This document shows, one piece after another, positions 6,551 to 24,326 of a stretch of 30,149 nucleotides of DNA; position 1 is the stretch's first letter; each line of letters begins with the position of its first letter. The position numbers were made by a program, and so were the translations under genes. The notes under the pieces were generated by a model, which saw only the letters and a list, made by a program, of their open reading frames with translations, made no database searches and was not told the DNA's origin. Source of the stretch: a virus (Duplodnaviria; Caudoviricetes); IMG/VR virus record IMGVR_UViG_3300033512_000421, positions 1-30,149 of that record, one strand, 5' to 3'.

Positions 6551-6578
6551 GCTTAATATTAAATGATTAAAAAAAACA

Positions 6579-6630: not shown

Positions 6631-6660
6631 CTATTTTAATACTTTTTAGGAGTAACAATA

Positions 6661-8052: not shown

Positions 8053-8165
8053 AAGTTTATGTTCATTCAGACGATATGGAAGAACTGCGTGAATTTGAAC
8101 GTAAGATGCAGCAAAAGTGGCTAGTGCAGTCGCAACCCAGCAACAGCCTTGACAACAACATTTAA
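7977..8165 (+). CDS. Small basic DNA-binding protein, candidate autorepressor
   Basis: AAGGA RBS before ATG 7977. MATPACERKKSSRKRR..NGLFRAVEVYVHSDD fits small phage ribbon-helix-type regulators. Confidence 0.55.
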   Translation: MATPACERKKSSRKRRSHNGLFRAVEVYVHSDDMEELREFERKMQQKWLVQSQPSNSLDNNI

Positions 8166-8430
8166 CCCCTTAATCACGCCATTGATGCGCTCCACAATGG
8201 CGTTTTGGGTTTTTGCCTCATAGTCTTTGTATTGCCGCCAATTATCAAATGCCTTACTTTTAAACACCTTTTGTGCCGTGCTTACTGGCATCGCAAGGGC
8301 TTGGTCAAGCGGGGTGTTAAAATACAGGCTTAAATTAACTGCCTCATTTAGCAACGATTCCGATAAAGTCTCGCGCTGTTCTCGATAAGAGCTTTGAAAC
8401 TGGAAATCGCGCTGGAGGTAAACTGCCATC
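8121..8430 (-). CDS. Tail assembly chaperone C-terminal ORF, possibly expressed by frameshift from 8344..9096
   Basis: Overlaps the upstream ORF in the +1 frame. NLSLYFNTPLDQALAMPVS resembles GT-type chaperone extensions. True start uncertain. Confidence 0.55.
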
Positions 8431-9096
8431 CATCTCCTTGGGTAACGTGATAATGCCGTTATCATCAAAATCAATACTAAACAAATGCTGTAGCCGTGCT
8501 TGATGGATTCTGTATGCGATAAACAAGTTTTCAAAAGCACTTTCAGGGTAAGCAAGAAAGGTTTTTATACGACTTAGCAACCAGTCATCTAGCTCTTCAT
8601 TTGAATTAAAACTGTTTTCAACATCCCCTTTTATTGCCAATTGCGCTGCCATTGAGCCGATTAACCAGTGATTGCGTCCTGTTAGAACTTGCCCCTCCAA
8701 TCGCTCAATAGATTCTGCTAAACAGCCCGTTAAATGCCCTAAAACCCATTCATCATCGGCAATTTGACCTAGCTCTATCTGACTAAAAGAGGCGGATAAT
8801 TCAGCTTCTTTGTTTAAATAATCTAAATAGTTCCCCATACCAAGCGAAAAGTTCGGGTTGTTTTCTTCTAACGTACAGGCAAGGTAATGTGCTACAACAA
8901 ACAGGCGTTCTTGCACAGTCCAGTCGTGCTGACTGGCAACCCCTTTGTTTGTTTTTATGACAAAGCCTAAGAACTTGGTTGTTGCCGCTTCATACAAATG
9001 AACTGGCATGGCGGCTAATTCCAACGATTGCTGAAAAGAAAGCTCTTGCAATTGAAGGGTAAGCCGCTTGGACTGTAAAATCGGAAAATGTCGCAT
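8344..9096 (-). CDS. Putative tail/baseplate assembly chaperone
   Basis: Acidic 250-aa protein in the tail operon, ending LPPARFP... with an overlapping downstream ORF. Confidence 0.5.
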   Translation of the reverse strand: MRHFPILQSKRLTLQLQELSFQQSLELAAMPVHLYEAATTKFLGFVIKTNKGVASQHDWTVQERLFVVAHYLACTLEENNPNFSLGMGNYLDYLNKEAELSASFSQIELGQIADDEWVLGHLTGCLAESIERLEGQVLTGRNHWLIGSMAAQLAIKGDVENSFNSNEELDDWLLSRIKTFLAYPESAFENLFIAYRIHQARLQHLFSIDFDDNGIITLPKEMDGSLPPARFPVSKLLSRTARDFIGIVAK

Positions 9097-9098
9097 AA

Positions 9099-9950
9099 TT
9101 AATTATTAATAATGACTTTAGATGTGGTATTGCCACTTGTTGCGGGGCTTGTTGAATCAGTTGTTGCAGCAGGTTTTGATCCTTTGTAGGCTTGCCAGTC
9201 TGCACGGTCTATGGCGGTTAAGGTCGATAGTGACAAAGGGATAGACATTTCAACGTAATTGCCACCACTGTCTATCGGCGAGGTTAATGGGTAGCCAATG
9301 GATTCAATAACCAGTGGCGAAAAGGTGCGGTTTTTGTATTTTAGGGCAACCATAACAGGGGATTTTGACGGCAACAACACATCAACTGCATCCTCAATGC
9401 CATTGGCACTAATTGCTCTGCCGACCAATGTGCTATTACCGGCTAATTCGACTGGTAATGCCCATGCCATCAATTGATTGATAGGCGTTTCAACTTCTTG
9501 GGTCGCATTGCGCCATGCCCGAAACAGCACGGTGATTTGAATTTTAGCACCCGCCGTGCCACTAAAGACCTGCGTTGAATTGAGTTTGGTGATACCAGTG
9601 CGTCCTTCAAATTGTTTCAGAAAATCGGTTGATTTTTGTGAGGTTGAATCGCTTATCACGCCCTTGCCATTTAGCGCGTCCACAACCGGCTGTAACGCAC
9701 CGCTTTGTAACATGGCAAAGAGCATAGGGGCTTTCGATTCCACGCCAGATGACTCAAAAGGGGATTGCCAGTTTAGTGCAATATCAAGGTTTCCTTCGAT
9801 AACGGGGCATTTAACCGTTACATTTTCATCAACTCTTTCGCCCTTGCTGTTGACTTGATAGATTGAAGCGATTAAGTGCGGCGAAAGACCGTCCCACAGC
9901 GAAGATAAGGCAGGTTTTTTGATGGTAATATCTTGCTCTGAGAAGGACAT
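9099..9950 (-). CDS. Putative baseplate/tail-tube initiator protein
   Basis: W.SPFE, QVFSG, I..LFRAW......EVE.PI..L..WALP and PLVIES...P motifs fit gp48-like tube-fold baseplate proteins. Confidence 0.55.
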   Translation of the reverse strand: MSFSEQDITIKKPALSSLWDGLSPHLIASIYQVNSKGERVDENVTVKCPVIEGNLDIALNWQSPFESSGVESKAPMLFAMLQSGALQPVVDALNGKGVISDSTSQKSTDFLKQFEGRTGITKLNSTQVFSGTAGAKIQITVLFRAWRNATQEVETPINQLMAWALPVELAGNSTLVGRAISANGIEDAVDVLLPSKSPVMVALKYKNRTFSPLVIESIGYPLTSPIDSGGNYVEMSIPLSLSTLTAIDRADWQAYKGSKPAATTDSTSPATSGNTTSKVIINN

Positions 9951-9953
9951 GGC

Positions 9954-10643
9954 TTACTTGTTTAACCCTGATTTAACACGCATCCGCATTGACTTGGCTC
10001 TTTTCATCATTGCTCCTGCGCTATGGCTTTTTTTCTGAGCTTTGCGGATGGCTGCTTTTTGCGCCCCTGATAAGCGTACCGTGCCGCTTATGCGTTTGTT
10101 GATTCTGACTTTTTTGCCATTGTGAACTGCGAAACGTTTTTTATAAACAGCATCGAAAATCCCGTTGTCATCCTCAGTTTCAAACCCAAAACTGTCAATA
10201 TCATCGGCTGCCTCGTCATCACTTGGAAGCGATTCAATCAGCAAATCCCGAATACGATTTGCTGTTTCCTCATCCCATTCGTTAAATAACGATACAGCAT
10301 CGCTTTCATCTGCACCGTGTCGAACAATATAATCCAAGGCAAAATTTGAAACAATATCAAAAGCATCTGCTTCGTCATCGTCAACCTCACCATTTTTGTT
10401 GTCATCAACGATACCGACCAACAAAGCAAATAAACGGTCAGATTGTGTTTCACCCTCGCCTAAGTCGATGTCAGAATCTGCCCATTGCTGCACTGCGGCG
10501 GCGGCTTTAATTTTAAGGTCTGTCACACCGTAATTGGCAGCCCCATCAAGAACAGGCTTGCTTTTTTTGTCGGTATCGCAACCATCAAGAATCGGTTGTT
10601 TGGCATACCGACTCGGGTCTGTTAATTTATCGTGTATATCCAT
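9954..10643 (-). CDS. Prohead core/scaffold-like protein (T4 gp68-like charge pattern)
   Basis: Very acidic N-terminal region and basic C-terminus RLSGAQKAAIRKAQKK...KRAKSMRMR..SGL, reminiscent of T4 gp68. Confidence 0.6.
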   Translation of the reverse strand: MDIHDKLTDPSRYAKQPILDGCDTDKKSKPVLDGAANYGVTDLKIKAAAAVQQWADSDIDLGEGETQSDRLFALLVGIVDDNKNGEVDDDEADAFDIVSNFALDYIVRHGADESDAVSLFNEWDEETANRIRDLLIESLPSDDEAADDIDSFGFETEDDNGIFDAVYKKRFAVHNGKKVRINKRISGTVRLSGAQKAAIRKAQKKSHSAGAMMKRAKSMRMRVKSGLNK

Positions 10644-10645
10644 TG

Positions 10646-12286
10646 TTAAATCACCAATGTTTGAGTGCAGTAAATTTGCCGTGTTGTTCCAACAAAGCAG
10701 GGCCAGTAATCGACAACAATTGCATCAATCAGCGTCCCATGAGGCATAACACGGTATTCAAAAAAATCTTTGCTAAATGAGGTCTCTTTAGGCGGTACAA
10801 CCCAGTCAGCGGCGCGTAAATCGGCTCGCATTTGATGCAAAAACTCACTCATTTCGGAGACTGCCACATCAATTGGTTTCTGCGCTAAATCTTTACTGCG
10901 CCGCGTAATGCGGTCATCAATATCAACTGACATATCAATAACCGCCGTGAGTTTTTTCAAGCTGTTATCGACCAACGCCCCTGTCAACGAATCAAAGAAG
11001 ACATAACGCTGTCCACCCGTGTAAGTTTCGCTGATAACGGGGTTGATTTTTGCTCGTGCTAAGTCATTTTTATCTTGTCCGGATAACTGGACAACTTGCG
11101 TTACAGCGCGGCGGTTTAGTGGAAAATCTTTACCCGCCACTGGATAATTTTTAGGCGCATATCCCCGTGCATTTTTTACCGCATTGCGTGCGCAGGCATA
11201 GGCAATATTCAGGGTCGCTGTGCCTAAAAACCCCTTGCCGTTTACGCCTGTGGGGTCTTGTGATTTTAACGGTGTCCAATATGACCATACCAAGTGAGAG
11301 CTATTAAAATTGCCACCGATATTAAGCTGCTCATAAAAAGCAATTGCCGCTTCTTTGCTTAACCCACCATACACATCAAACGGCATTGGCTTGTTAGTTT
11401 CATACGCCAGTTGAATAAATTGTGCTAATAGGGCTGGGGACTGTGTGCCGCCGGACGAAATGTAACCAAAATTAAACGGCGTAGTTTGTAATGCAGTTCG
11501 GGCGGCAATGTAATCGGCTGTCGTATAGCCCGTCCCCCCTTCGTCAAAGCAAACCAGCACCGGTGAACTTGCCCAATTCGGCAAGCCCGTTTCGTTATAA
11601 CCGTAAGCAGGCGAATTGGCGGCAATTTCGGTAATCGAATCCCATGTATAAACTTCAACGGCATCGGTTTGATTGGCGACTAAATTGGACAAATAGTTGG
11701 TTTGCTGGTAATCATCCAAACTGTCAGGGTTTAACGAGCCGGTAAAATCAAACAGCGGTAAATTATCTTTGTCTTTAATGCGTAAATTAATCTTGTCATT
11801 CGCAACTGACATACCGCCGACACGTTTTTCTTCAACGTGAATTTCACATTTGATGCCATCGTTAAAGCACTCTAAGTGCTTGATAGCAATTAAAAAAGGC
11901 GTTGTCGGTAATGTGTCGGTTACTGACCAAACAATCGGGTCTGAGGTCGTTGTGCCTAGCCGAGCTACCGCATATTTAATCACCGCTGCACTGGTAATTA
12001 AGCGTTGCACAATGGCTTCATACGCGCCGTTGTTTAATGCCTCAACGATATGCACCCACGCTTCATTCAGCATAGACACGCGCATCGCTTCGCCCTTGCC
12101 AATTTTTGCCTGATAATTGCCCTTATTGACTTTGAAAGGCTTGTCAATGCGTCCGCGTGTTAAGCGGCACATCGTGGCAAATTGCTGGTCGTAATTATCC
12201 GCTGTGGGGATTTCAGAGTTATCGCGTAAGGGGTTTAATTGCACCCCCGATTCCGCGTTAAGTTGTCGTGTAAAAGAAGCAGCCAT
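10646..12286 (-). CDS. Contractile tail sheath protein (P1 gp22-like)
   Basis: 546 aa. N-terminal SGVQ...RGRIDKPF, PVAG, LARAKINPV and a C-terminal 'YWPCFVGTTRQI' strand. Adjacent to the capsid gene as in P1. Confidence 0.8.
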   Translation of the reverse strand: MAASFTRQLNAESGVQLNPLRDNSEIPTADNYDQQFATMCRLTRGRIDKPFKVNKGNYQAKIGKGEAMRVSMLNEAWVHIVEALNNGAYEAIVQRLITSAAVIKYAVARLGTTTSDPIVWSVTDTLPTTPFLIAIKHLECFNDGIKCEIHVEEKRVGGMSVANDKINLRIKDKDNLPLFDFTGSLNPDSLDDYQQTNYLSNLVANQTDAVEVYTWDSITEIAANSPAYGYNETGLPNWASSPVLVCFDEGGTGYTTADYIAARTALQTTPFNFGYISSGGTQSPALLAQFIQLAYETNKPMPFDVYGGLSKEAAIAFYEQLNIGGNFNSSHLVWSYWTPLKSQDPTGVNGKGFLGTATLNIAYACARNAVKNARGYAPKNYPVAGKDFPLNRRAVTQVVQLSGQDKNDLARAKINPVISETYTGGQRYVFFDSLTGALVDNSLKKLTAVIDMSVDIDDRITRRSKDLAQKPIDVAVSEMSEFLHQMRADLRAADWVVPPKETSFSKDFFEYRVMPHGTLIDAIVVDYWPCFVGTTRQIYCTQTLVI

Positions 12287-12288
12287 GA

Positions 12289-12702
12289 TTAACCACCTTT
12301 GGCTTTTTTGCCAGTTGTTGTCTCATTCGCAACAGGTTCTGTGGGTTCAGTAACAGGTTCTGTGGGTTCAGTAACAGGCGTATCGACTGTCACATTAGGC
12401 ACACCCGCGTCAATAATTACCAGTTCAGCGTGCTTGTGATTTTCAGCAATGCTTTCTAGGTCAGAAACCATACGGTGCATATCGCTTAAGCTGTTTACCG
12501 TTACCGTTGCTGTACAATTTTTTAAATCGTGCAGCGGTTTTAAATGGAATTTATCAGGCAAAACCAAGGAAAACATTGCGCGATTGGTTACAGACACCGA
12601 CAAAGGAAAGTCATTTTGTTGAAATTCTTTTGTCACTGTGTCGTTGGCATCAATACCCGTTACAGAGGGCGCACCAACACCGAATTTTACGGTTCTAGTC
12701 AT
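12289..12702 (-). CDS. Small virion-associated protein with PVTEPTE repeats
   Basis: Lies between the capsid and sheath genes. 21-bp tandem repeat at 12331-12378. Confidence 0.55.
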   Translation of the reverse strand: MTRTVKFGVGAPSVTGIDANDTVTKEFQQNDFPLSVSVTNRAMFSLVLPDKFHLKPLHDLKNCTATVTVNSLSDMHRMVSDLESIAENHKHAELVIIDAGVPNVTVDTPVTEPTEPVTEPTEPVANETTTGKKAKGG

Positions 12703-12704
12703 GA

Positions 12705-14411
12705 TTATTTAAGTCCTGTCAAAGTGATTAAGGCAAAACCTTTGGCACTGGGGGTGTGCGGATTGGGTTTGATAAACGTTTTTTCAAAATAGCCCACGCC
12801 CTCATCCAGGTTTAAAGTGCGATTAGTTGGTAGCAGTAATGGACTTACTGCTTGCCCCATAACTACCGCTGAACGCGCCACATCTTGACTTTGCCCCACG
12901 CAAAGCAACTCAGCGGTTGTAATGTCGTTTCCATCGGTGGTTTCGTTAATGCTTGGGCTGTAATAGAACTCGTAAATACCGTCCAATGTACCAATACGGT
13001 GAATGCCTGGGTAATCACGAATGCCCGATGAAACAAAACGACTACTGTTTTTCAGCAAGTTAAGCCATGACTTAACTTTTTGACCGCAATAGACATGACT
13101 TACACCATAGGAATTGGTGTTGACTGCCATTTTTTGCGAAACAGCACCCAAGGGTATTGAGATGTTTTCAATGGATTGCTCTCTGGTTTGTGCGCCAGTT
13201 GCTAGCCAAGTGTCGATTGCAAAAGAAGCCTGATTTTCGAGTGCTAACCGCCGCCCATACGTCAACGCTAAATAATGCTTTTCGTTCATTAATTGCCGCT
13301 GTAATGCCGCCATAAGTTGCGACATAGGGTCAATACCTGCTTCATTATTGAATTGAGTACGCGCATCCACGCCAACCATTGCGCTGGCTCGCCAGGGACT
13401 GGCAAACAGCGAATAAACAGAGGAGTCTAAGCCGATGGAAGGAATGATTGCGGATTGGCGGTTATAATCAATAATGCCTTCTACGATTAATTCACTGCCG
13501 TTGGGCAATGCAGGACTAGAAGCAACACTAATTTCACCTGTGTCTGTATTAACCGTGCCACTCAATGAGTAAGTCACATTTGACAAGGTTACTGAGCCAC
13601 TTAAATTAGACACGGCTGTTTGAGTGGTTACTTCTTTAGCGACTTGATGACCGTTGGCATAAACAACGGACGCGCCTTTGACCAACTTAACTGCGACCAC
13701 ATCCCCCGCAACCGCCGCGCAATTGTCAGAATCTGTTTGCACACTGGTTAATTGCCCTGTTCCCGTGCCACCTGCGCCAATCACAATTTTGTCAAAACGA
13801 GAGGAGGTTATGTAGGCTCTGCCTGAATTGATGCCGTCAATGTTTGCACCCGCTTCATATTGTCCAAAATGATTGGTCGCGTTGTGATTGACAATAATCA
13901 ATTTAGCTTCACCTGAGCCAATGTCAGTGGGTAAAGTTGTTGCCCAAGGAATTGCCGAGGTTAAGGCAGTGGTGATTGAAACAATGGCACGGTTGGCTTG
14001 CATTGCGCCGTTTTCGGGCAGCATATTAGACGCATCATCTAAGATAGCTCCAGCGGCTGCATAATTGCGCTTGATGTTGTTGCGTGTTTGCTGATAAGCC
14101 GCATTAAGCGTAAATTCAAGTAAATCAGGGGATGGTGCTTGATTATGCTGGGTTTCGTAATCAGCGATGCTGTCCAAAAAAGCCGCAATAACAGGGGCTT
14201 TTCCTGCTGTTCCCACCTCGTCTAGTAATTGAGCAAAACCGTCAGGTACACCTAGGCTGTTTTGCCCTGTTATCGCGGTTTCAATCGCATCGCTAGCTGC
14301 GCTAACAGAGTCTAAAAAGCTTTCAGAGTCTTGTGTGAACAGGCGCAGGTTATCCGCAAACTTTGCGGCGGCTTTCGCGCTGGTGGAATGGGATGTACGT
14401 TTTGTTGCCAT
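12705..14411 (-). CDS. Major capsid protein (P1 gp23-like)
   Basis: 568 aa with a propeptide-like N-terminus, a beta-rich insertion (GTVNTDTGEISV) and an HK97-like C-terminal IGTLDGIYEFY. First gene after a late promoter. Confidence 0.8.
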   Translation of the reverse strand: MATKRTSHSTSAKAAAKFADNLRLFTQDSESFLDSVSAASDAIETAITGQNSLGVPDGFAQLLDEVGTAGKAPVIAAFLDSIADYETQHNQAPSPDLLEFTLNAAYQQTRNNIKRNYAAAGAILDDASNMLPENGAMQANRAIVSITTALTSAIPWATTLPTDIGSGEAKLIIVNHNATNHFGQYEAGANIDGINSGRAYITSSRFDKIVIGAGGTGTGQLTSVQTDSDNCAAVAGDVVAVKLVKGASVVYANGHQVAKEVTTQTAVSNLSGSVTLSNVTYSLSGTVNTDTGEISVASSPALPNGSELIVEGIIDYNRQSAIIPSIGLDSSVYSLFASPWRASAMVGVDARTQFNNEAGIDPMSQLMAALQRQLMNEKHYLALTYGRRLALENQASFAIDTWLATGAQTREQSIENISIPLGAVSQKMAVNTNSYGVSHVYCGQKVKSWLNLLKNSSRFVSSGIRDYPGIHRIGTLDGIYEFYYSPSINETTDGNDITTAELLCVGQSQDVARSAVVMGQAVSPLLLPTNRTLNLDEGVGYFEKTFIKPNPHTPSAKGFALITLTGLK

Positions 14412-14466
14412 GTTTTTACCTATTGCAATAAGTGATTAAACGTTGCTCTTATGAGCAGTAGGCAAT

Positions 14467-14507
14467 AGTGTACGGCGGTAAAAAAGGGCGAAAGGTTGGT
14501 TTTTCCT
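14467..14507 (-). promoter_or_regulatory. Putative phage late promoter (GGAAAAACCAACC plus -10 TACACT)
   Basis: TACACT begins 34 bp after the first G of the box. Confidence 0.7.
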
Positions 14508-14521
14508 AGTGTGATGGGCAT

Positions 14522-14549
14522 AAAAAAAGGCGGGGTTAGCCGCCTTTTT
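14522..14549. terminator. Bidirectional intrinsic terminator ending the Rha operon
   Basis: AAAAAGGCGG-ggttag-CCGCCTTTTT. Confidence 0.8.
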
Positions 14550-14565
14550 GAGTTACCTTTTTTAA

Positions 14566-14982
14566 TCAAGAGGGTTTTCTGCGATAAACCTTGTCTGCTT
14601 TAAAGCTTAAGGGTTTATTGCAATCTTGCCAGTTGTTTAAATCATTTGCATATCGCCACTGCCAAAGCGTTATCGCCTTTTCCTCCCCATAAAATTCAAC
14701 ATCATGGGCATATAATTCACAGATAGGTTTTAATTCAGTTTCAACAAAATCAACTTCATCATTAAGTTTGTTATCCCATAAAAACACCTCTGCCTCGCAA
14801 CATTGACTGACTTGATGATAATGATATTCAGCATTTAATAAATTACCTTGAAAGTCTTCTTCCTCCATACGCGGGTGTCTGTATTCGGTGAGTTCACACT
14901 CCCCACAGCCATTTTCGCAACACCACACTTGCTGAGGCTCTAAATCAGGTAGTTTGAACCGTTTTTCAATAATAGCCATCAA
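14566..14982 (-). CDS. Hypothetical protein with Cys-rich N-terminus
   Basis: CCENGCGEC...SQCCEA suggests metal binding. Last gene of the Rha operon. Confidence 0.6.
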   Translation of the reverse strand: MMAIIEKRFKLPDLEPQQVWCCENGCGECELTEYRHPRMEEEDFQGNLLNAEYHYHQVSQCCEAEVFLWDNKLNDEVDFVETELKPICELYAHDVEFYGEEKAITLWQWRYANDLNNWQDCNKPLSFKADKVYRRKPS

Positions 14983-15195
14983 TCACCCCGCCTTAACTTT
15001 TTTAAAAATGTCCAGTATATACGTTGAAAACAGGTTTTTACGCCCGCTCTCATACCCCGTTTTTTTAGCTATTTTAGTCTTGTCACTCAGGGTTATAATT
15101 GTTTTTGACACTTTAGTAATTTCTAAGGTTCGCCTTTGTGGACCATTGGCGACAAGAACCTTGTCACCGACTTCTACAGTTTGTAAGTCTGGCAT
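14983..15195 (-). CDS. Small beta-barrel (SH3-like) hypothetical protein
   Basis: VEVGDKVLV...ITKVSKTIITL pattern. Translationally coupled to its neighbours. Confidence 0.6.
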   Translation of the reverse strand: MPDLQTVEVGDKVLVANGPQRRTLEITKVSKTIITLSDKTKIAKKTGYESGRKNLFSTYILDIFKKVKAG

Positions 15196-15196
15196 T

Positions 15197-15379
15197 TTAT
15201 TTCACCCTCACTAAACGCGGCTTATCCGTTTTCACCGCCTGATGTTCAAATCTTTCCGCATGAAGCAAGTCAATTAACCGCCCTAACTGTTCTTGCGCTT
15301 CGTTTTGTGCAATCGCTAATTTCCACAATTCAACGATACATTGAACCATAAAAACACGCTGTTCTTGCGTTGCCATCAC
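15197..15379 (-). CDS. Hypothetical protein
   Basis: Coupled to the upstream gene through GTGTGATG with an AGGT RBS. Confidence 0.55.
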   Translation of the reverse strand: MMATQEQRVFMVQCIVELWKLAIAQNEAQEQLGRLIDLLHAERFEHQAVKTDKPRLVRVK

Positions 15380-15786
15380 ACACCTACCGTTTCAAATGAA
15401 TGGTACATTGAAATATCAGCACCAGGATTAGCGGCCTTCTCATCTATGAGTTCTGATAATGATTTGGCTATTTTGACCTGATTGCCGAACATTTTAGGAT
15501 AAAGTGTTTCGTCCCATCCGGTCAGCGAACAAATAACGTTTCGCTCCCAAGATGACGGTCTCGTAACGCCTTCAGAAAAACGGTCACAAACACTTTCAAG
15601 CATCGTTGTCACCAGCGGTTTAAAATCATCGCGTTTTTTGTTGTAACCTTTTTTCATTTCAGGCGTATTACAACCATAATCTTGAACGCACAAAGCATAA
15701 GCCAATGCTTCCAAGTATTGAAAGCTTGACTCCGATAAATTTAAGGTAACAGTTACTTTTTTATCACTGATTTGACTCATCATCAC
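15376..15786 (-). CDS. Hypothetical protein
   Basis: Coupled to the Rha-fusion stop codon and flanked by 15-bp direct repeats. Confidence 0.6.
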   Translation of the reverse strand: MMMSQISDKKVTVTLNLSESSFQYLEALAYALCVQDYGCNTPEMKKGYNKKRDDFKPLVTTMLESVCDRFSEGVTRPSSWERNVICSLTGWDETLYPKMFGNQVKIAKSLSELIDEKAANPGADISMYHSFETVGV

Positions 15787-16760
15787 ACACCTACCTTGTC
15801 ATTTTTAAAATGCAGTTTCAGGGCTTTGTTGTGATTAACGATGCGATACAGTGACAAAATAGGGATGTCCTGCTTAAATTCATCCTCTAAAATCGAATGC
15901 AGCAAGGTCACTTTCCGCTGTGACCAAGGAATAAATGTTTCTTGGTTAGCTGGGTCTGCCGACTGCACGATTAAGGCTTCAAAACGTGCCACAACCGCAT
16001 CGGATAGCCGAGAATGGCGGCCGCGTGTTTCTTCTTTAAACACCCGTGGCATTTTTCCCGTTTCAATAAATTCCTTGCGGTAGCGGCAGCGTAGAGCTTT
16101 GATAGAACCTGCCTGTGAGCCGCTGGTTTTTTTGGCATCTAAAAATCGTGCCAGTGCGACTTCAAAAGCTTGTCGGGACACAATGGCTTCATTAAGATTT
16201 TCATCCACACAAGGCAGGTCGGCTTGAGCTTGCGGCGGGGCTTTTATCCCGTCTGCGGTTTCCGCGCTGACGGTGATATTGACGGGGGCTTTTTTTAGAA
16301 GTGCCAAGTGGTGCGTTAATAAGTCGCGCCGTTCTGTGTAAGTTTCGTAACTGATAGGGTCGGTGACGGGTTTTAAAAAGTCGGGCAGGTCGGTGGGCGC
16401 GGCTTGTGAAGTTATGGGGAAAAGCTTGTTATACATAAAATCAAAGGCATTGATATAAGCTTCCTTTATCTGCATTGCCTTTTGCCCTGTAAAACTCATA
16501 ACAACCATAACAAAGCCGTTTTTTGTGAGTTCGTAAGCGGGGTCTTTACGGATTCCAAAGCCTACTTTTACATCCACTTCAATGAGCGCAAAATTGCGTT
16601 TATTGAAAGAATCAGATACTTGCGTGATTATTTCTTCAATTGAGCGCAAAACATCAGCATGACGTTTGTCGAATGCTTCGGCAATTTTTAGCGAGGTGGT
16701 TTTGAGTTCGTGATGGTGAGCAAAGATAAATTGCTCAGGGATTATTGCGGATGTGGTCAT
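15783..16760 (-). CDS. Rha-family antirepressor/regulator fused to a transposase-like N-terminal DNA-binding domain
   Basis: Rha motifs TTSLKIAEAFDKRHADVLRSI, NFAL, YELTKNGF and FTGQKAMQIKEAYINAF. Start revised to ATG 16760 (AAGGAG RBS). C-terminal ~135 aa contains ...RGRHSRLSDAVVARF...LHSILEDEFKQDIPILSLYRIV. Confidence 0.8.
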   Translation of the reverse strand: MTTSAIIPEQFIFAHHHELKTTSLKIAEAFDKRHADVLRSIEEIITQVSDSFNKRNFALIEVDVKVGFGIRKDPAYELTKNGFVMVVMSFTGQKAMQIKEAYINAFDFMYNKLFPITSQAAPTDLPDFLKPVTDPISYETYTERRDLLTHHLALLKKAPVNITVSAETADGIKAPPQAQADLPCVDENLNEAIVSRQAFEVALARFLDAKKTSGSQAGSIKALRCRYRKEFIETGKMPRVFKEETRGRHSRLSDAVVARFEALIVQSADPANQETFIPWSQRKVTLLHSILEDEFKQDIPILSLYRIVNHNKALKLHFKNDKVGV

Positions 16761-16803
16761 TTCTGACTCCTTACGGTTTCTTTTCAAGGAAGCCTCCGAA
16801 GAG

Positions 16804-16879
16804 GCGAGTTAAGAGCTTGAAAACATCCCATAAGTGATGCAACAGATATTCAATATATTCTCTGTCACTCTTAACCCGC
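16804..16879 (-). ncRNA. C4-type antisense RNA (76 nt)
   Basis: Closing stem GCGGGUUAAGAG/CUCUUAACUCGC, an internal hairpin, and single-stranded CUUAUGG and UUUUCAAG complementary to target pairs upstream (16961-16984) and downstream (16770-16788). Confidence 0.85.
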
Positions 16880-16920
16880 GAGAGTAATTATGCCACAAGT
16901 GACACAATTATAAAAACGAT

Positions 16921-16990
16921 GGGCAAAAAAATACCGCTTGTCTGTCGGGTGCGGAATCCGCTTATGGTTTGTGAGCTTTTCAAGACTCTG
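16921..16990 (-). promoter_or_regulatory. c4 a1-b1 target leader with alternative terminator/antiterminator pairing
   Basis: a1 CUUGAAAA and b1 CCAUAAG, then GCGG..CCGC...GCGG-UAUUUUUUU, where CCGC can pair with either GCGG. Confidence 0.7.
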
Positions 16991-16996
16991 CGTAAA

Positions 16997-17026
16997 ATCT
17001 TACACCCGCGACTGGAAACTTGTCAA
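16997..17026 (-). promoter_or_regulatory. Sigma70 promoter for the c4-rha operon
   Basis: TTGACA (17026-17021), 18-bp spacer, TAAGAT (17002-16997). Confidence 0.75.
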
Positions 17027-17037
17027 GCGGTTGTTGA

Positions 17038-17064
17038 CAGTCGAATTTTAAAAATAGTTGACCT
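17038..17064 (+). repeat. Internal copy of the terminal repeat motif
   Basis: CAGTCGAATTTTAAAAATAGTTGACCT versus terminal CAGTCGAACTTGAAAGAAAGTTGACCT: 23/27 identical. Confidence 0.8.
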
Positions 17065-17074
17065 GTAAGGCAAT

Positions 17075-17107
17075 AAAAAAGCCCGTAACATCCATTACGG
17101 GCTTTTT
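17075..17107. terminator. Bidirectional intrinsic terminator
   Basis: AAAAAGCCCGTAA-catcca-TTACGGGCTTTTT. Confidence 0.85.
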
Positions 17108-17112
17108 AGGCT

Positions 17113-17463
17113 TTATGGATTTTTAGCATCCTTCAAATACTTCTTAAGCACCTTTACCCGCGCGGTGTTGAAATCAATTGCACAGCTTGCGCTTTCATCC
17201 ATGTTGCTCACGGCATAAATATAATCGCAAGTAGAATCCCTAAATTTTGCCCAGTCGTCTTGTGCTTTTTTTAATGCGTCAACCGCTTCTTTATTGTCAC
17301 CCAATCCTTTAAGCAACGCATTGAAAGCAGGTTTAATTGGGGCGGCACTTTCTTCAATTAAGCAGCCTCTAACCATTCCCATATTGTCAGCCCCTTCTTC
17401 ACAATTTTTAGCTGTTGCCGACAAACTCATTGCCAATAACACGGTACACAAAAACAATTTCAT
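17113..17463 (-). CDS. Secreted lysozyme inhibitor LprI/DUF1311-family protein
   Basis: Signal peptide MKLFLCTVLLAMSLSATA, then C...M..C and LKKAQDDWAKFRDSTC...C......R...L. GGAG RBS before ATG 17463, so the start is revised from 17580. Confidence 0.8.
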   Translation of the reverse strand: MKLFLCTVLLAMSLSATAKNCEEGADNMGMVRGCLIEESAAPIKPAFNALLKGLGDNKEAVDALKKAQDDWAKFRDSTCDYIYAVSNMDESASCAIDFNTARVKVLKKYLKDAKNP

Positions 17464-17485
17464 TCTTATCTCCATAAAGTTAAAG

Positions 17486-20400
17486 TTAGGGAGATGATAA
17501 CCCACCTGTCGCAATATGTGCCAGTTTTCTGTCAGGCAAATCCTGCCCGATTTCTTGCCTGATAATTGGCTGGGGCGCACTGCGTGAGCTACTGGCTAAT
17601 GGTACGGTAATCGCGGGGGCATCTTGAATAGGCTGTGGTTTTGCAGCAATAAACGACACTGACGGCATGGCGGGGGTAACGTTTTGCGTGGGCAAAACAG
17701 GCTTTGCGGTGGCTTGCTCGACTTGTTTAGGGGTGGCTACTGGCTTTGTGGCGGGGTCAGCGTTTTTAGCCAACGGTGGCGGTACGTTTTCAGCCTTGCC
17801 ATTGCGCACGTTTGCATACGGGTCAACGGCATACATCATTTTCTTGCTGCGTTTTGCTAACCACTCCCCTGCATCGGTGGTATGAACGCCTTTTTTGCTG
17901 CTTGATTCAGATATTTGCATCGCCCCTGTTGTAGGGTCTTTAACGACTTGCGTAATGTGGTCTATCCCTTTGTAACGCCCCTCACCGCTTTTTGCGCCAC
18001 CTTGCGCATAGTCAATGCCGATTAACATTCCCTCTTTCAAGTTTTGCAAATTAACATCTTTGCCGCTTAATTCCTTGCCTGTTAATTTACCCACTTCTTC
18101 AATAATACCCGCGCCCCCTGCTTCATTAGCCCCTTTTTCCATTGCATTTAAAGCGGGTTTCATTAGTTTTGGGTCGGTCATTTGTGAGGCAATGCCGCGA
18201 TTAAGCTCCATAATCCAGCCAGAGCAGTCGATTGAACCGCTGGATGAGTTTTTCGAGCCGTAATTATATTTAACCCCTTTGTTTATCGCTTGCTGTGTTC
18301 CTTGTACTAAGTTGTTGTTAATATTGGTCATCAAAGGAGATACTGCTTTTGCTGTATCAACAGGCTGGGCGGGTTTTACGCTGGCACTGGCGGTTTTTGG
18401 GGTAGTCGCTGCTACCTCGGCGGTGGCTTGTTTTTGTTTATTTGTACCGCCACTAATATCATTTGCAAATCCTTGACTACCAGCCATTGCGCTACCCATA
18501 TTGGCATAGGCTTCTGATAAAGAAATATTGCCATTCTTGTATAAACTACCGTTCCCCTTTATCACTCTCCCTGACAAAACACTGCTAACAGGCGCGTTAG
18601 GATTAGCTTTTAGTGCTTTTAAAAATTTAGGCCCATCGCCTTCGCCTAAATTGTGCATAGCATAAACATTGGCGGCATCATCAGTACCGCCATATTTACG
18701 CCCCTTTTCTAAGTTTTCTTTTGTGAACTCTGCCAGCATATTAGCTTGCACTTGTTTGTCATGGCGATATTTTCTAGGGTCGCTTGTATCTAACCCATAT
18801 TTTTTACCATATTTTTTAATAGAAGAATCCCAAGTTCCATCTAAAAACTGCCCATAGCCATGTGCGGAACTTAACTTTTTGCCACTTTTCGTAATTGGCA
18901 TCGCCTCAGAATTAAATCCACTCTCAAAACCTGCTATTTTTGCCAACACAGCAGGGTCAACACCCGCTTTATTTGCCGCATCTGCTATCAATGGTTTTGC
19001 TTCCTGCCATCTTGATTGAAACTTTTTATCCCCCCATTTCTTTTTAGCCGTGCTTGATAATGACTCATTTCCAGTCACATAGTTTTTCGCTTTCTCATAC
19101 CCGCCAGAAACAGCATCCTTTGCTGCCCCTGCCGCATTAACCGTCCCTTCAATGCCATCAGTAACAGCATTGACCGCGCTGTCATGCGCTCCCGTTACTG
19201 TATTGACCGTGTTTTCAATGCCATTAGTCGTAGAATTTACCGCGCTTTCGTGAGCATCCTTAACCGCGCCCACCGCATTTGCTACAGGTTCTATGACTTT
19301 TTTACTCACAAATTCAACAACCTTGTCCCAAATCTTAGTAATCGAATCAATAAACGAGTCCCATTTTTTGCCAATGGCATCAAAAATAGGTTGAATGCCT
19401 TTTAAAGCCCCGTCCCAAATTTCACCTATCCATGTTGTAAACCCCGTCCAGATGTCACTAATTTGCTGAGTAAGCCAATCCCAACTGGCGGTTAAAGCGG
19501 GGGCAATGGTTTCATTAAAAAACCTTACCCCAAAATCCCATGTTGCAATCACCGCAGGAATCACATAGTCATTAAAGGCTTTAACTGACCATTGCCATGC
19601 CGCCATTAAATTAGGGCCTAAGTTTGCAAAAAACTCCCTGCCTGTTTTTGAAAACACTCCCCATGCAAGTAAACCCGCCGCACCTATCCCTAACGCAATC
19701 GGGGAAAAAATCAAACCCAAAAGACCTAATAACCCACCGCCCATAAGCCCCGCTAACAGGCTAAAGAAGCCCCCACCGCCGCCATCACTGTTTTCTTCCC
19801 CTGTATTTTCCTCAGTTTTCTTAAGCGACTTAAGAATCTTGCCAAACCAGGCAAAATAAGGCTTGTCTTTTTTATCCTCACCATTGCCGCCGAATAAGAA
19901 CTGATAACCGCGTGATAACGGCTCGGCAACTTCTTGAAACGCCTTGACAGCAGGGTCAGCCTCTTCTAAACCGCCCGTTCCAAAAGCCAGCACACCTGAT
20001 ATTTTATCGCCCAAGTTATCAATAGCACTGCCCACAAAAGACTTTTCTGCCTCTTTATCATCACTACCACTACTTTCAAATTGTCCTCTGGCGTTGCGTC
20101 TTCTGCCCGTAGGTTCGACTGTTTCTTGGGTGTTGCCACCACTGATAAACCGCCCATTCGCATCACGTTGTCGTGTCGGTGGCTCAGATGAATCGGATTC
20201 AGCGGCAGGAATAACCGTTGTTTGCCGCTCTACTAACTGCTCTGATAACAAGCTTGCCGTTGAGTCAGCGCGGGTTGATTGTAATTCGGTATGGCTTGCT
20301 TGCGGTTCAACTACAGTTTGCAATGCAGGTAATGGCGCGGTATTGCGGCTTGTTTGTTGCGGCTCAACTGTTTGTCTTTGTGAACCGCCTGCATTGTTTG

Positions 20401-20668
20401 TAATACGGTTGTTTGTTGTACGGGGATGATTTGAAACAGAGGAAATTGAAGGCGGTAATGCGGGTGCAGACGCTAAAGGCAAAGACAATGCCGCGCTGTT
20501 TTCCAGTGCGTTAGGAATGGACGGCGCGGCTTGGTTATCCATATTTTGTAAAAGCTGCTTGATTGCTGCGACATCTTTGCGAATAGAGTCTAGTCCTTTG
20601 GTTAGTCGCTTAAGCTCAGGAATAGTTTCCCCGACTAAAAAGCCATTTGCATCATGTTTTAATGCCAT
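17486..20668 (-). CDS. Tape measure protein with lytic transglycosylase and NlpC/P60 domains (functional analogue of P1 Sit)
   Basis: Trp-periodic helical repeats and a hydrophobic segment. SLT motifs IAGFESGFN...SSAHGYGQFLDGTW...YAMHNLG. NlpC/P60 motifs YNYG...IDCSGWI...DHI. Confidence 0.85.
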   Translation of the reverse strand: MALKHDANGFLVGETIPELKRLTKGLDSIRKDVAAIKQLLQNMDNQAAPSIPNALENSAALSLPLASAPALPPSISSVSNHPRTTNNRITNNAGGSQRQTVEPQQTSRNTAPLPALQTVVEPQASHTELQSTRADSTASLLSEQLVERQTTVIPAAESDSSEPPTRQRDANGRFISGGNTQETVEPTGRRRNARGQFESSGSDDKEAEKSFVGSAIDNLGDKISGVLAFGTGGLEEADPAVKAFQEVAEPLSRGYQFLFGGNGEDKKDKPYFAWFGKILKSLKKTEENTGEENSDGGGGGFFSLLAGLMGGGLLGLLGLIFSPIALGIGAAGLLAWGVFSKTGREFFANLGPNLMAAWQWSVKAFNDYVIPAVIATWDFGVRFFNETIAPALTASWDWLTQQISDIWTGFTTWIGEIWDGALKGIQPIFDAIGKKWDSFIDSITKIWDKVVEFVSKKVIEPVANAVGAVKDAHESAVNSTTNGIENTVNTVTGAHDSAVNAVTDGIEGTVNAAGAAKDAVSGGYEKAKNYVTGNESLSSTAKKKWGDKKFQSRWQEAKPLIADAANKAGVDPAVLAKIAGFESGFNSEAMPITKSGKKLSSAHGYGQFLDGTWDSSIKKYGKKYGLDTSDPRKYRHDKQVQANMLAEFTKENLEKGRKYGGTDDAANVYAMHNLGEGDGPKFLKALKANPNAPVSSVLSGRVIKGNGSLYKNGNISLSEAYANMGSAMAGSQGFANDISGGTNKQKQATAEVAATTPKTASASVKPAQPVDTAKAVSPLMTNINNNLVQGTQQAINKGVKYNYGSKNSSSGSIDCSGWIMELNRGIASQMTDPKLMKPALNAMEKGANEAGGAGIIEEVGKLTGKELSGKDVNLQNLKEGMLIGIDYAQGGAKSGEGRYKGIDHITQVVKDPTTGAMQISESSSKKGVHTTDAGEWLAKRSKKMMYAVDPYANVRNGKAENVPPPLAKNADPATKPVATPKQVEQATAKPVLPTQNVTPAMPSVSFIAAKPQPIQDAPAITVPLASSSRSAPQPIIRQEIGQDLPDRKLAHIATGGLSSP

Positions 20669-20672
20669 TTTC

Positions 20673-21650
20673 TTACCTCTGTAACTCTATAAATGCCCTG
20701 ATAAATTCAGCCGCAACTTGCGGCACGATGGCATTGCCATAGCCTTTCAACCGCATTACCCGCGCTTCTTGCGTTTCGTTGGGATTTGTCGGTGCGCTAC
20801 TATCGCTGCTGTACACCATTCCTTTGGGTAGCCCATTAACCAGCGGCTTAATGCTGGGTTCAATTGCCCTGTACTTACCGTCTCGGCAGTATAGCCAGTC
20901 TGGGTTATCCCATTCACAGGTACTTGGTCTTTTAAATTGGCGCAGCCACCCTGTGAACTTGAAAGGGCTTGGTCTGAGCGAATTGGTAGATTGTCCATTG
21001 CGTTGGGCGTTCCCCAGCCTGTCATTGTTGTTGCAATAACCGATAATTCGATGGATTTTCCAATTTTTATCCTGCGCTGAATACAAGGGTCTGTCCATTT
21101 CCCTCTGTCTCTGTTGTCGCTGGATATTGGCGTTGGAAAACCTGTTTTTGGCAACCCAATACAATCTTTGTCTTTGATGGAATGAGTTGACGCTGTGTGC
21201 GCCCAATACACAGTACCCAACGGCGTAGTTTTCTGCTTCCATTGCTGCCTGTAAATCATCGAGCCATCCGTGCCTAATCGCTGCTTCAACTTGTTCACCA
21301 AAGAGAGTGTCAGGTCGGCACTGCTTAACAAGTTCAAGGAAGTGGGGCAATAAGTGCCTTTCGTCTGCTTTGCCTTGCTGTTTTCCTGCGGTGCTAAAGG
21401 GCTGACAAGGCAAGCTGACTGTCCAGACGGGTTTATCATCTTGCCAGTTTGCAAGCCTGAGTGACCTTGACCAACCACCAATACCCGCGAAGAAGTGGTG
21501 TTGGGTAAATCCATAAAGGTCGCTTGCTTGTACGTTAATGATTGAGCGTTCATCTACTATTCCATTGGCTATCAGGCCTTGTTTGATTAATTCGCGTAGC
21601 CATGCGGCGGCGTTGGGGTCAAATTCGTTGTAATAAGCGGTCATCATCAA
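20673..21650 (-). CDS. DNA (cytosine-5) methyltransferase, alpha-type polypeptide
   Basis: FFAGIGGW (motif I), LPCQPFS (IV), GEQV (VI), HQRQRLYWV (VIII) and LKGYGNAIVPQVA (X). Motif IX is absent in this frame. Confidence 0.9.
   Translation of the reverse strand: MMMTAYYNEFDPNAAAWLRELIKQGLIANGIVDERSIINVQASDLYGFTQHHFFAGIGGWSRSLRLANWQDDKPVWTVSLPCQPFSTAGKQQGKADERHLLPHFLELVKQCRPDTLFGEQVEAAIRHGWLDDLQAAMEAENYAVGYCVLGAHSVNSFHQRQRLYWVAKNRFSNANIQRQQRQREMDRPLYSAQDKNWKIHRIIGYCNNNDRLGNAQRNGQSTNSLRPSPFKFTGWLRQFKRPSTCEWDNPDWLYCRDGKYRAIEPSIKPLVNGLPKGMVYSSDSSAPTNPNETQEARVMRLKGYGNAIVPQVAAEFIRAFIELQR
20756..21553 (-). CDS. Overprinted alternative-frame ORF: putative beta polypeptide of the C5 methyltransferase
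   Basis: 265 open codons inside the MTase gene, with repeats GFPTP/GWGTP and motif IX-like GQLNPALSRWLMGYPKEW. Start uncertain. Confidence 0.7.
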   Translation of the reverse strand: MNAQSLTYKQATFMDLPNTTSSRVLVVGQGHSGLQTGKMINPSGQSACLVSPLAPQENSKAKQTKGTYCPTSLNLLSSADLTLSLVNKLKQRLGTDGSMIYRQQWKQKTTPLGTVYWAHTASTHSIKDKDCIGLPKTGFPTPISSDNRDRGKWTDPCIQRRIKIGKSIELSVIATTMTGWGTPNAMDNLPIRSDQALSSSQGGCANLKDQVPVNGITQTGYTAETVSTGQLNPALSRWLMGYPKEWCTAAIVAHRQIPTKRKKRG

Positions 21651-22498
21651 CTCATAAACGTATCTAATTGCACAAATGACATCGTGACTTCGCTTAATGC
21701 CTGTTCACTGCGTGATAAGCTTAAAGACATATTGCCAGTTCGATATTTGCCCACACTTTTATAGCCATTACCCTTGATAACGCCATGAATTACGGTGATT
21801 TTAATGGCATATTGCGCGGGTAATCCCACCGTGCCATCAGCACTGGCACAAGCACTACCGTGTTTTTCAAACCACGTTTTAATAAACCCCGCTGAATTGT
21901 CTAGGGTGGTTAGGGTTAATTCAATAGGGTCTGCTGAATTGACTAAATCAACATGAGCTGCGCCAATTTGTTTTTTTTCACCGCTAATTGTGATGGGCGA
22001 AAAGTCAATGTTATAAGCGAACATATTGAATTTTTCTGATTGGTCGCCGCCCAACTCACTTTCGACTTGCAACATCCACAGGTTTTTGCGACACCATGAG
22101 TTACCACGTTGTTTGTTATAAATTTCAAGTGCTGCTTGTGGGCTTATCCCACCCAGCATAGAGGTCGAAGTATTGAAATAAGCCGCGTTGCCACTGCCTC
22201 CACCGATACCAAACGCATCCGCGATTTTAAACCCCGCGCCGATGGCATCAATAAAATTACCGTTTTGAATGGAGTCTAGCATTCCACCTGCGGTATCCAG
22301 CAAGCCCGTGTATTTATTAACCGCGTTTGTAATGCTTGATGGGATATAACGCTCTGCAATTTGTGCGACATTGCTTACCAGCGGATTATTTAAAACATCC
22401 CCCATCGCGTCACCGACCACACTGCCTAACGCATCACCTAACATTCCACCAAACCCCGATGACTTTAGGCTTTTTTGGATATTGTTAAACAAACTCAT
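21647..22498 (-). CDS. Tube-fold baseplate/tail protein with a Gly-rich N-terminus
   Basis: C-terminal ELTLTTLD..G.IKTWF.......DGTVGLP..Y...ITV...EVTMSFVQ fits tail-tube-like folds. Confidence 0.6.
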   Translation of the reverse strand: MSLFNNIQKSLKSSGFGGMLGDALGSVVGDAMGDVLNNPLVSNVAQIAERYIPSSITNAVNKYTGLLDTAGGMLDSIQNGNFIDAIGAGFKIADAFGIGGGSGNAAYFNTSTSMLGGISPQAALEIYNKQRGNSWCRKNLWMLQVESELGGDQSEKFNMFAYNIDFSPITISGEKKQIGAAHVDLVNSADPIELTLTTLDNSAGFIKTWFEKHGSACASADGTVGLPAQYAIKITVIHGVIKGNGYKSVGKYRTGNMSLSLSRSEQALSEVTMSFVQLDTFMS

Positions 22499-22690
22499 TT
22501 AACATTCCTCTGGGTAAAAAGGTTCAATTTCTGCTTGAGTAAAAACCTGTTGCGTTCCATCATCTAAAGCGCACAAATAACCTTTTTTTACTTTCCTGAT
22601 AATAATTACTTTTCCACGACTGTGATAAAAACTATTTTTATCACAAACATAAACACGTCTACCGCTGTAATACTCACTTGATGATGTCAT
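22499..22690 (-). CDS. Small hypothetical protein (SH3-like)
   Basis: ATGA overlap with the portal stop codon and abuts the next gene. Confidence 0.5.
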   Translation of the reverse strand: MTSSSEYYSGRRVYVCDKNSFYHSRGKVIIIRKVKKGYLCALDDGTQQVFTQAEIEPFYPEEC

Positions 22691-24198
22691 TCCTCATCTC
22701 CTCCGCCATCGACTGGGGGCTTTACATCCACCATTTTTGCGTACAAAGCCGCCTCCTCCTCTTCAAGCATCATTTGCTTAGATAAAAACATGGTCATTTG
22801 TTCTTTATCCCAGCCTAAATCTTTTGCCATTTGCATCGCCTGAATCAGCAACATACCGCCATTCATTGTGTCGGCTTTAATCTTGCTTTGTTCGGCATCA
22901 AAGGCAGAAATAGAACTGTAAAAATTGACATTGACTGAACGCTGTTTTTTTGGAAAAACGATTCCGTATTTTAAAAACGTGTGAACATCAATAAGGGATT
23001 GATAAAAATCATGTGCCGATTGGCGGATAATGCGTGACTTTTCGGCGACTTGGGCTGAGGTGCGTGAAATACCACCATCGCCAAAAATAGCACTCATTTG
23101 GTCGGCAAACCCTAGATTTGATAAATCCGCTCCTAATCCCCCCGCAACTAGCCGTGCGTGTAATAACACGTCTTCAACGTTAATGGTGGCACTACGCGAA
23201 GAGCTTAACGGCGTGATGTTGGCAATTTGTTTTTCGCCATTGATGGGAAAAATATGCCGAATCAACCCTAAAATGGGACTGCCGTTAGTCAGCGCGTCAT
23301 CAACGACTTTCTTGGTTTTTGTCAGCATTTGCACAACAGATTCCAAAGAACGCTTTTGCTGTTCTTTAGTCATGTTTTCCATATTCAACGTCCAGTAAGC
23401 CTCATCCAGTGAGTCACGAATGCGCTGCCCTGTAATACCTGATAAAGCTGCTACTAAGTTTTCCCAGTCTTTTTCGACAGGGTACAAAAAAGAGCCACCA
23501 ACCATACTGGGCATAATGGGCTGTTTTGCTAAGTCGTTTTCGGTGATTGCTATTCGCATCGACTTCTGCACAATAGACGGCTGAGGTGTCCATTGAGTGC
23601 GGTGCATTTTAAACCGCCCTAATTGCGTTACATCTAGCCTATCATAGATGTTTCTACCCGAATAAACCTGATAACCCACCGTGCGCCCCGCTTTTTCATA
23701 CGGTTGCACTAAGGCAGGTAAAAATAATTCGTCAGTGGTTAAGTCAATAATGCCCTGTTTATCGGCTGAAAAAATCCTAACGTAAGAATCCCCTTGTTCT
23801 GCCGCTGTATAGCTGCTTGTATAAGCCACTTTATTGAAAAGTTCGGTTAAATCATCCGCTATTTCTTCGGCTATTTTGGCTAATTTTGGGTCTTTTTGCG
23901 CGGCGGCTGATTTTTCTAAATAAACCATTTGCCCTGTTTGCGGATCGCCTCCCAATGCAGCGGTACACAACACTTTAAGCCCCGAAGAAATAATGGAAGT
24001 CGCCCCCATTGTTTGCCATTTTTCATAAATGATTTCGCGTTGCCGCGCGGCTTTGCCTCCTGTTCCCAGCAATGTAGAAACTGTTGTTGAGCCTAACCCG
24101 TATTCATAGCCTAAAGTCGGTGTTATTTGCTCTGCGGGGGCTATATTGGCTTCGCGCCATGTTTTCTGCGAGACTCCGAGTTGTTTGAAAAATGACAT
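22687..24198 (-). CDS. Portal protein (P1 Prt/T4 gp20-like)
   Basis: 503 aa with R..IYEKWQTM, GDSYVRI, GGSFLYPV..W..L, IEDV-like NVEDV and LG.D.S.LGF. First gene after a late promoter. Confidence 0.8.
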   Translation of the reverse strand: MSFFKQLGVSQKTWREANIAPAEQITPTLGYEYGLGSTTVSTLLGTGGKAARQREIIYEKWQTMGATSIISSGLKVLCTAALGGDPQTGQMVYLEKSAAAQKDPKLAKIAEEIADDLTELFNKVAYTSSYTAAEQGDSYVRIFSADKQGIIDLTTDELFLPALVQPYEKAGRTVGYQVYSGRNIYDRLDVTQLGRFKMHRTQWTPQPSIVQKSMRIAITENDLAKQPIMPSMVGGSFLYPVEKDWENLVAALSGITGQRIRDSLDEAYWTLNMENMTKEQQKRSLESVVQMLTKTKKVVDDALTNGSPILGLIRHIFPINGEKQIANITPLSSSRSATINVEDVLLHARLVAGGLGADLSNLGFADQMSAIFGDGGISRTSAQVAEKSRIIRQSAHDFYQSLIDVHTFLKYGIVFPKKQRSVNVNFYSSISAFDAEQSKIKADTMNGGMLLIQAMQMAKDLGWDKEQMTMFLSKQMMLEEEEAALYAKMVDVKPPVDGGGDEE

Positions 24199-24232
24199 AG
24201 GTACAGGGCATAAAGTGGGTATATTGCCTTGT

Positions 24233-24273
24233 ATTATCAGGTATTGCGATTAGGTCTTAGGTTGGTTTTTCCC
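24233..24273 (-). promoter_or_regulatory. Putative phage late promoter (GGAAAAACCAACC plus -10 GATAAT)
   Basis: 13-bp box identical to the one upstream of the capsid gene. The -10 begins 34 bp after the first G. Confidence 0.7.
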
Positions 24274-24275
24274 AA

Positions 24276-24307
24276 TAAAAAAGCCCGTTCCTTGCGGTTC
24301 GGGCTTT
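24276..24307 (-). terminator. Intrinsic terminator ending the accessory operon
   Basis: AAAGCCCG...CGGGCTTT stem with a T-run on the minus strand. Confidence 0.7.
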
Positions 24308-24326
24308 GTGTTTTGTTTACTTTGGA

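Follow-up and report, generated by a model that had tools for sequence, protein, structure and literature searches.

A phage Rha regulator fused to a captured transposase domain, beside P1-like virion genes and a Mu-family transposon end

The window, as we call the whole 30,149-nucleotide stretch of viral DNA analysed here, runs from host DNA across a Mu-family transposon end into a P1-like virion module, and it carries two genes with homology to one transposase family. The virion module (4135..29960, minus strand) encodes, by PHROG matches, tail, tube, sheath, capsid, portal and baseplate wedge proteins, a tape-measure-like gene and methylases. Its capsid, sheath, tube and portal are of P1 type; the capsid shares 23% identity with P1 gp23 and 40% with that of Xanthomonas phage Rb1, and capsid relatives at 37–41% identity occur in 9 of the 346 family genomes. 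In all four relatives compared, the tail gene is followed by a baseplate gene; the window lacks it, and the element may for that reason be defective. Pfam and PHROGs recognised no plasmid replicon, partition genes or recombinase within the window, and among its ORFs we recognised neither a MuB-like ATPase gene nor an intact transposase. Two overlapping minus-strand ORFs in different frames (20673–21650 and 20756–21553) match the methyltransferase families phrog_363 and phrog_1008 and resemble a two-chain cytosine methylase encoded in overlapping frames.

Phage regulators of the Rha, KilA-N and Bro-N types have shuffled C-terminal domains. The gene encoding P0001 (15783..16760, minus strand), a 325-aa ORF, combines an Rha N-terminal domain, a linker and a domain homologous to part of a transposase. 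The Rha domain (aa 21–109; 16434..16700, minus strand) matches PF09669 with an E-value of 9.6e-25 and 87.4 bits, against a curated cut-off of 29.9, and phrog_518 with an E-value of 1.5e-37. PHROG labels name the protein a regulator or anti-repressor; antirepressor activity is predicted from this family label, and the C-terminal domain is covered by none of the PHROG families considered (the best 5 of 13). The linker (aa 124–169; 16254..16391, minus strand) is identical over 46 residues to that of the KilA-N fusion P0003, and since the two proteins differ in their N-terminal domains, this identity points to recent N-domain swapping. It is also related to the C-terminal part of ordinary Bro-N/KilA-N regulators (phmmer E 5.5e-7 for the one at locus L004 and 3e-4 for the one at L179). 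Homology to the linkers of two Bro-N fusions, P0009 and P0012, suggested by eye, was not confirmed by phmmer.

The initial annotation had likened the C-terminal ~135 aa of P0001 to the N-terminal part of a DDE transposase, and alignment bears this out. Residues 197–318 (15807..16172, minus strand) align with aa 162–279 of P0004 (709 aa) at 42% identity (E 1e-19), and the domain aligns with P0005 at 34% (E 5e-12) and P0006 at 37% (E 1e-12), all three E-values being pairwise. These three are full-length proteins of 689–709 aa, retrieved independently with the window's 463-aa ORF, P0002, as query, and the captured domain is homologous to the region directly preceding their DDE core. Aligned separately, the two pieces from the window fall, as had been anticipated, on adjacent, non-overlapping regions of P0004 (aa 162–279 and aa 295–696). 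In MuA, the I-beta-gamma region has a tandem helix-turn-helix (HTH) fold. The position of the captured domain ahead of the core and its HTH-like character lead us to predict that it binds element ends; its match to HTH_32 is weak (E 0.042), and its Atlas neighbours are HTH clusters at 0.82–0.84, below the 0.9 bar, with TM values of 0.37–0.47.

A profile of the captured domain gave 87 hits among 1.84 billion proteins; about two dozen hits, to long repeat proteins with short, low-scoring stretches, were dropped, and the core lies downstream of the domain in 39 of the proteins scored. The domain also stands at the C-terminus of the Bro-N proteins P0009 and P0012 and of the KilA-N protein P0003, and short domain-bearing forms, which may be cut, were found too. 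In a domain tree of 55 rows (score at least 36, at least 90 positions), four full fusions (Rha, KilA-N and Bro-N twice) and two solo or cut forms make up a fusion clade with support of 100/100; its tie to P0004, P0008 and P0036 is weak (76/79). A short TG..GR linker is found in the fusions and in 3 of 33 full-length members, namely these same three. The domains of P0009 and P0012 are 39–41% identical to that of the window, which indicates a domain kept as a module.

By homology, the fusion's domain and P0002 are from one transposase family, and probably from one subfamily. The fused domain nests among the Bro-N and KilA-N fusions and not with P0004, which points to a separate, older capture; it was, we infer, taken once and long ago from the P0004 subfamily, and P0002 arose independently of it. 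Identity values were rejected as an argument for separate origins: in ten pairs of full-length proteins whose cores are 60–80% identical, the domains are 42–79% identical, so that 42% has no discriminating power. The captured domain occurs in 2 of the 346 family genomes, once in a full-length and once in a truncated transposase, and at the loci examined for it only four full-length transposases carry it. Viral, metagenome and genome scans returned no DNA context for the other fusions or for P0004. One locus (L182 87–917, genome G316) encodes P0022, a 276-aa transposase truncated just past the binding domain, in a Mu-like early region.

The second piece, P0002 (6661..8052, plus strand), is a 463-aa transposase core without N-terminal domains, which corresponds to aa 295–696 of P0004 at 64% identity and lacks an end-binding domain of its own; nothing in the window matches the first ~140 aa of P0004. 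We assigned the catalytic triad by invariance and motif in an alignment of 33 homologues; six of the 39 core-bearing ones, most of them partial, were set aside. Three acidic columns show no variation among the 33. P0002 keeps D55 and has glycine for the second aspartate (G131) and aspartate for the glutamate (D175), and the core is predicted to be catalytically dead. At the 31 columns conserved at 90% or more it departs from the family in eight, compared with zero to four in the other homologues. None of the eight losses is more than 7 residues from the triad (8 of the 12 columns there vs 0 of the 19 elsewhere; Fisher p 6e-5 at the 90% threshold), a bias that is weaker at the 80% and 70% thresholds (p 0.01 and 0.026). 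The reading frame is open across 463 codons. P0002 and P0004 are sisters (support 100), and the P0002 branch is 3.4 times as long (0.33 vs 0.098). The pattern is consistent with a protein maintained for its fold rather than for catalysis, and also with simple decay.

Two perfect palindromes TGTGACAGTCACA (6585–6597 and 6617–6629, within 6585..6629) flank the likely promoter of the 463-aa gene and are possible operators; when two mismatches were allowed, 12 of 100 shuffles reached the same count of two. The slot that P0002 occupies is variable: Rb1 and the relatives in genomes G050 and G248 carry lysis-type genes there.

Full-length members of the transposase family sit in Mu-like prophages, at four IMG/VR loci and in one genome contig (G046:C13). 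These prophages measure ~38 kb, and in them the transposase gene adjoins one gene for an ATPase with a Walker A motif and another that is repressor-like. The repressor and ATPase labels were read from translations, and the ATPase motif was seen at L001, L002, L004 and L184. The G046:C13 prophage (10602–48763) bears TGATTGCT at both ends and is flanked by a 6-bp duplication, TTTGAT. A 252-bp MITE in a Methylovulum record (L222, 1174–1425) has the same ends, with a TTGATC duplication. TG ends and a duplication within the 5–6-bp range of Mu/B3-like elements, beside an ATPase gene in a prophage, are thus features of the full-length relatives. No Pfam model recognised the family at its cut-off, the scores to Mu-transpos_C_2 (PF22483, E 0.0007–0.03) being sub-threshold; tblastn found no match in 50,697 GenBank phages or 72,556 plasmids, and a sequence search of the PDB found none. 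For phage B3, TG ends and a 6-bp target duplication have been described (PMC8705779).

The Methylovulum record with the MITE also holds four single family ends (L224 2026 and 5481; L230 10024; L232 2777), and among the 14 loci listed, family ends are present only at L222–L224, L230, L232 and L192. Most of the 45 genome hits and 9 viral hits to the end pattern were discarded as single and chance-like, and a bipartite site pattern gave three unrelated hits in viral contigs. Within Mu-like prophages, end-type sites lie beside lysis genes (G046:C13 23421; L002 5938; L003 2867 and 2901). These prophages also contain tandem arrays of 14–22-bp units (L184 10732–10832; L001 2444–2579; L004 1–180; L183 2234–2411; L002 16214–16292). 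Most of these arrays adjoin the repressor gene; they are not the end sites, and they are possibly enhancer or operator arrays.

In the window, the transposon end (3873..4134, plus strand) consists of a 5'-TGATTGCTTTG terminus and five AAGTTGACCT sites, and it falls within a host FG-GAP repeat gene (3004..3872, plus strand) that is cut inside its last repeat. The sites start at 3889, 3994, 4037, 4079 and 4121 and span 3889–4130; with one mismatch allowed, the window has seven matches where 1.99 are expected, a number reached by 1 of 100 shuffles. The terminus lies 16 bp ahead of the first site, and the first 26 bases from 3873 match four family ends at 17–20 positions. The terminal 11-mer by itself occurs in 16 of 300 shuffled windows, so the terminus counts only in combination with its position and the 26-base match. 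The spacing of the sites (105, 43, 42 and 42) resembles that of the three-site end of the G046 prophage (102 and 54) with the third site triplicated. The window's end points into the phage genes and abuts the intact stop codon of the tail gene, and the G046 three-site end likewise follows the stop codon of a late gene. A TG terminus and multiple transposase sites thus stand at a host junction, as in transposable phages, with the 6-mer TCTCAA flanking at 3867–3872. By homology to the family ends, the AAGTTGACCT repeat is a transposon-end site; the window's version differs from the family's AATAGTTGGACG, and among the matches listed for the window-type end pattern with one mismatch, places in one genome only were found.

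A contig from sequencing run X3 spans the host junction (3793–4059) with 0 differences. No inverted end lies inside the window, and the contig stops at 30149; a reading as a MITE cointegrate was ruled out, with no inverted end near 4134. The host DNA at 42–3012, which holds Rpn-type genes, is 96% identical to a Methylococcaceae record (L101) that diverges past 3012, and no empty insertion site was found there. This host part contains tandem Rpn / PD-(D/E)XK genes with repeated 154–197-bp segments (72–2687). In runs X3 and X4, a contig matches the end's second site (3963–4000) joined to another flank (in X4 with 6 differences, at depth 11.9); it is a related end in the same communities.

The fusion gene is preceded by a conserved structured leader (16776..17029, minus strand) with a predicted -35 box, TTGACA, at 17026–17021. 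The leader is 74–77% identical to those of three KilA-N cassettes of genome G001 and has a fold z-score of -2.67; Rfam, the c4 RNA model included, gave no match at gathering score, and the leader's likeness to those of the c4/immI antisense-controlled cassettes is a tentative one. Between a terminator tail and the -35 box lies a 38-nt insert (17030..17067) that contains an end-type site at 17038–17064, identical to the 42-bp repeat at 23 of 27 positions, where the best of 300 shuffles reached 21. The same interval is 2 nt in the three G001 cassettes (L178, L179 and L180). A leader search gave 29 places in 26 of the 346 genomes; after 11 short matches, mostly to the terminator, were dropped and L180 was added, 19 loci resulted, of which eight could be anchored. 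None of these eight carries the site, all having a best score of 12–15 of 27, and none of the six ORFs called downstream of anchored leaders carries the domain, the close Rha homologue at L279 included. The link between site and domain is seen in one cassette. A site upstream of a -35 box is in a position that favours activation, and the centre of this one is ~25 bp upstream of the box. The three G001 cassettes stand alone, surrounded by genes of non-phage type, a placement that suggests independent mobility of the cassette. Elsewhere in the window, TTTGACCGCGTAAGGCA (30044–30062), upstream of the ORF at 29139–29960, resembles the flank of the 17055 site and is possibly a degenerate site or late-promoter element.

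The element has low contig depth in all four sequencing runs. Run X1 holds a contig 81% alike to 7315–7536, at a depth (4.05) comparable to that of the core gene (5.7), and hand translation of its four loose ends yields P0004 stretches distinct from P0002; that community thus contains a P0004-type gene. The same run has a depth-2 contig over 6973–7062 with at least 10 differences, none of them listed at 7051–7053 (G131), possibly from a second dead allele.

The locus holds a real fusion and a real end, and together they give a strong lead, open to test, that Mu-type ends enclose a P1-like prophage. We favour, with confidence just short of even, the reading that the fusion and the dead core are a brake that restrains transposition of this prophage. 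The fusion would bind AGTTGACC sites at the element end and at its own promoter and would compete with an intact transposase, holding the prophage in place. P0002, a second piece likely captured separately from the same subfamily, kept its structural residues and lost its active site, and so would poison the enzyme as a subunit, in the manner of the Tn5 inhibitor. The gene for the intact P0004-type transposase would lie outside the window, or a co-resident Mu-like phage would provide the enzyme, and the presence of P1-like virion genes inside a true family end makes it likely that such an enzyme inserted the prophage. The brake is disfavoured by the activation-favouring position of the 17038 site and by the long P0002 branch, which decay would also produce; moreover, because end-type sites occur in Mu-like prophages (G046, L002 and L003) in which no such fusion was found, the 17038 site may serve the intact transposase. 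Further points against the brake are the restriction of the site–domain link to one cassette, the difference of the window's site from AATAGTTGGACG, the weak tie of the fusion clade to the P0004 group, the weaker active-site bias at looser thresholds and the missing baseplate gene. It is possible, if doubtful, that a large P1-like myophage has become transposable outright, with Mu/B3-type ends, a 6-bp duplication and its own or a co-resident transposase, under the control of both domesticated pieces, the Rha fusion reading end and promoter and the dead core. We consider it unlikely that the fusion works in the positive sense, binding ends and its own promoter on induction, activating itself and helping to load an intact transposase, for which P0002 would be a non-catalytic scaffold. 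The activator-like place of the promoter site, the conserved regulatory leader and the P0004-type gene in run X1 all suit such a role, which would tie the lytic switch to transposition and comes close to the coupling proposed in the initial annotation. An intact P0004-type enzyme has an end-binding domain of its own, however, with which a second would compete, the window lacks a recognised MuB-like gene, and the precedent of Tn5 is inhibitory (PMC4265352).

A less orderly history is rather doubtful: the domain would be a generic DNA-binding tail of shuffled antirepressors, P0002 a decaying fragment and the end a leftover of a Mu-like prophage joined to P1-like DNA by deletion, with a defective hybrid as the outcome. 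The missing baseplate gene, the long P0002 branch and the low contig depth would fit loose debris of this kind, as would the absence of both pieces from the P1-like relatives examined (10 contigs of 9 genomes, many of them short, and a 41.6-kb stretch of Rb1). Decay does not readily account for an intact frame that, at the 90% threshold, shows losses around the active site and nowhere else, for an end that abuts an intact stop codon, or for an end-type site inserted exactly at the promoter of the one domain-bearing cassette. A working transposase assembled in trans from the products of the two ORFs is nearly excluded. The ORFs cover adjacent regions of P0004 and likely derive from the same subfamily, and to this extent the earlier idea of two transposase halves stands; the enzyme it implied does not, given changes at two triad positions on which all 33 homologues agree, changes at six neighbouring conserved residues, a domain that nests with the Bro-N and KilA-N fusions in what points to a separate capture, and the unmatched N-terminus of P0004. 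It is scarcely credible that the junction of host DNA and end is an assembly artefact: the window comes from one metagenomic contig, and L101 departs from it past 3012, but the run X3 contig crosses the junction without a difference, and the junction coincides with the family terminus to the base.

Here a phage antirepressor cassette has gained a transposase domain and, apparently, the site which that domain would bind, located at the cassette's promoter; this offers a testable instance of regulator and operator being acquired together. P1-type virion genes have, besides, been placed inside a Mu-type end. If the element is intact, it would widen the class of transposable prophages; if it is dependent, it would be a phage parasitising the transposase of another phage. 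The titles and opening lines of abstracts that we consulted, few of them from subscription papers, hold no report of either arrangement. The work also defines ends (TGATTGCT, a 6-bp duplication and MITEs) for a transposase family that Pfam cut-offs do not recognise.

Set beside ordinary Rha, KilA-N and Bro-N regulators, the fusion shares the N-terminal domain, the linker and the leader seen in Methylococcaceae cassettes, and it differs in its transposase-derived C-terminal module and in a promoter that gained an end-type site. The IS1 InsA and IS3 OrfA proteins limit transposition by binding ends. The Tn5 inhibitor (Inh) does so by dimerising with the enzyme (PMC4265352). The likeness to all three is that of a limiter derived from a transposase, inhibition here being proposed by analogy; whereas Inh, InsA and OrfA are alternative products of the transposase gene, the pieces here are encoded by two distinct genes in the setting of a different phage, one piece being fused to Rha and the other having a mutated triad. 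CapR of PLE is reported to be a domesticated endonuclease used as a repressor (PMC8096241), similar in that a mobile-element enzyme would have become a DNA-binding regulator, and different in enzyme family and target. Phages of the Mu/B3 type share the ATPase and repressor-like neighbours, ~38-kb prophages, TG ends and 6-bp duplication of the family, and described transposable prophages measure ~36–39 kb (PMC8705779); the end described here differs in enclosing more than 26 kb of P1-like genes, and the transposase pieces are a fusion and a predicted dead core. P1 and Xanthomonas phage Rb1 resemble the window in capsid, sheath, tube, portal and gene order, but P1 is kept as a plasmid (PMC8546580), whereas in the window a transposon end connects the element to host DNA.
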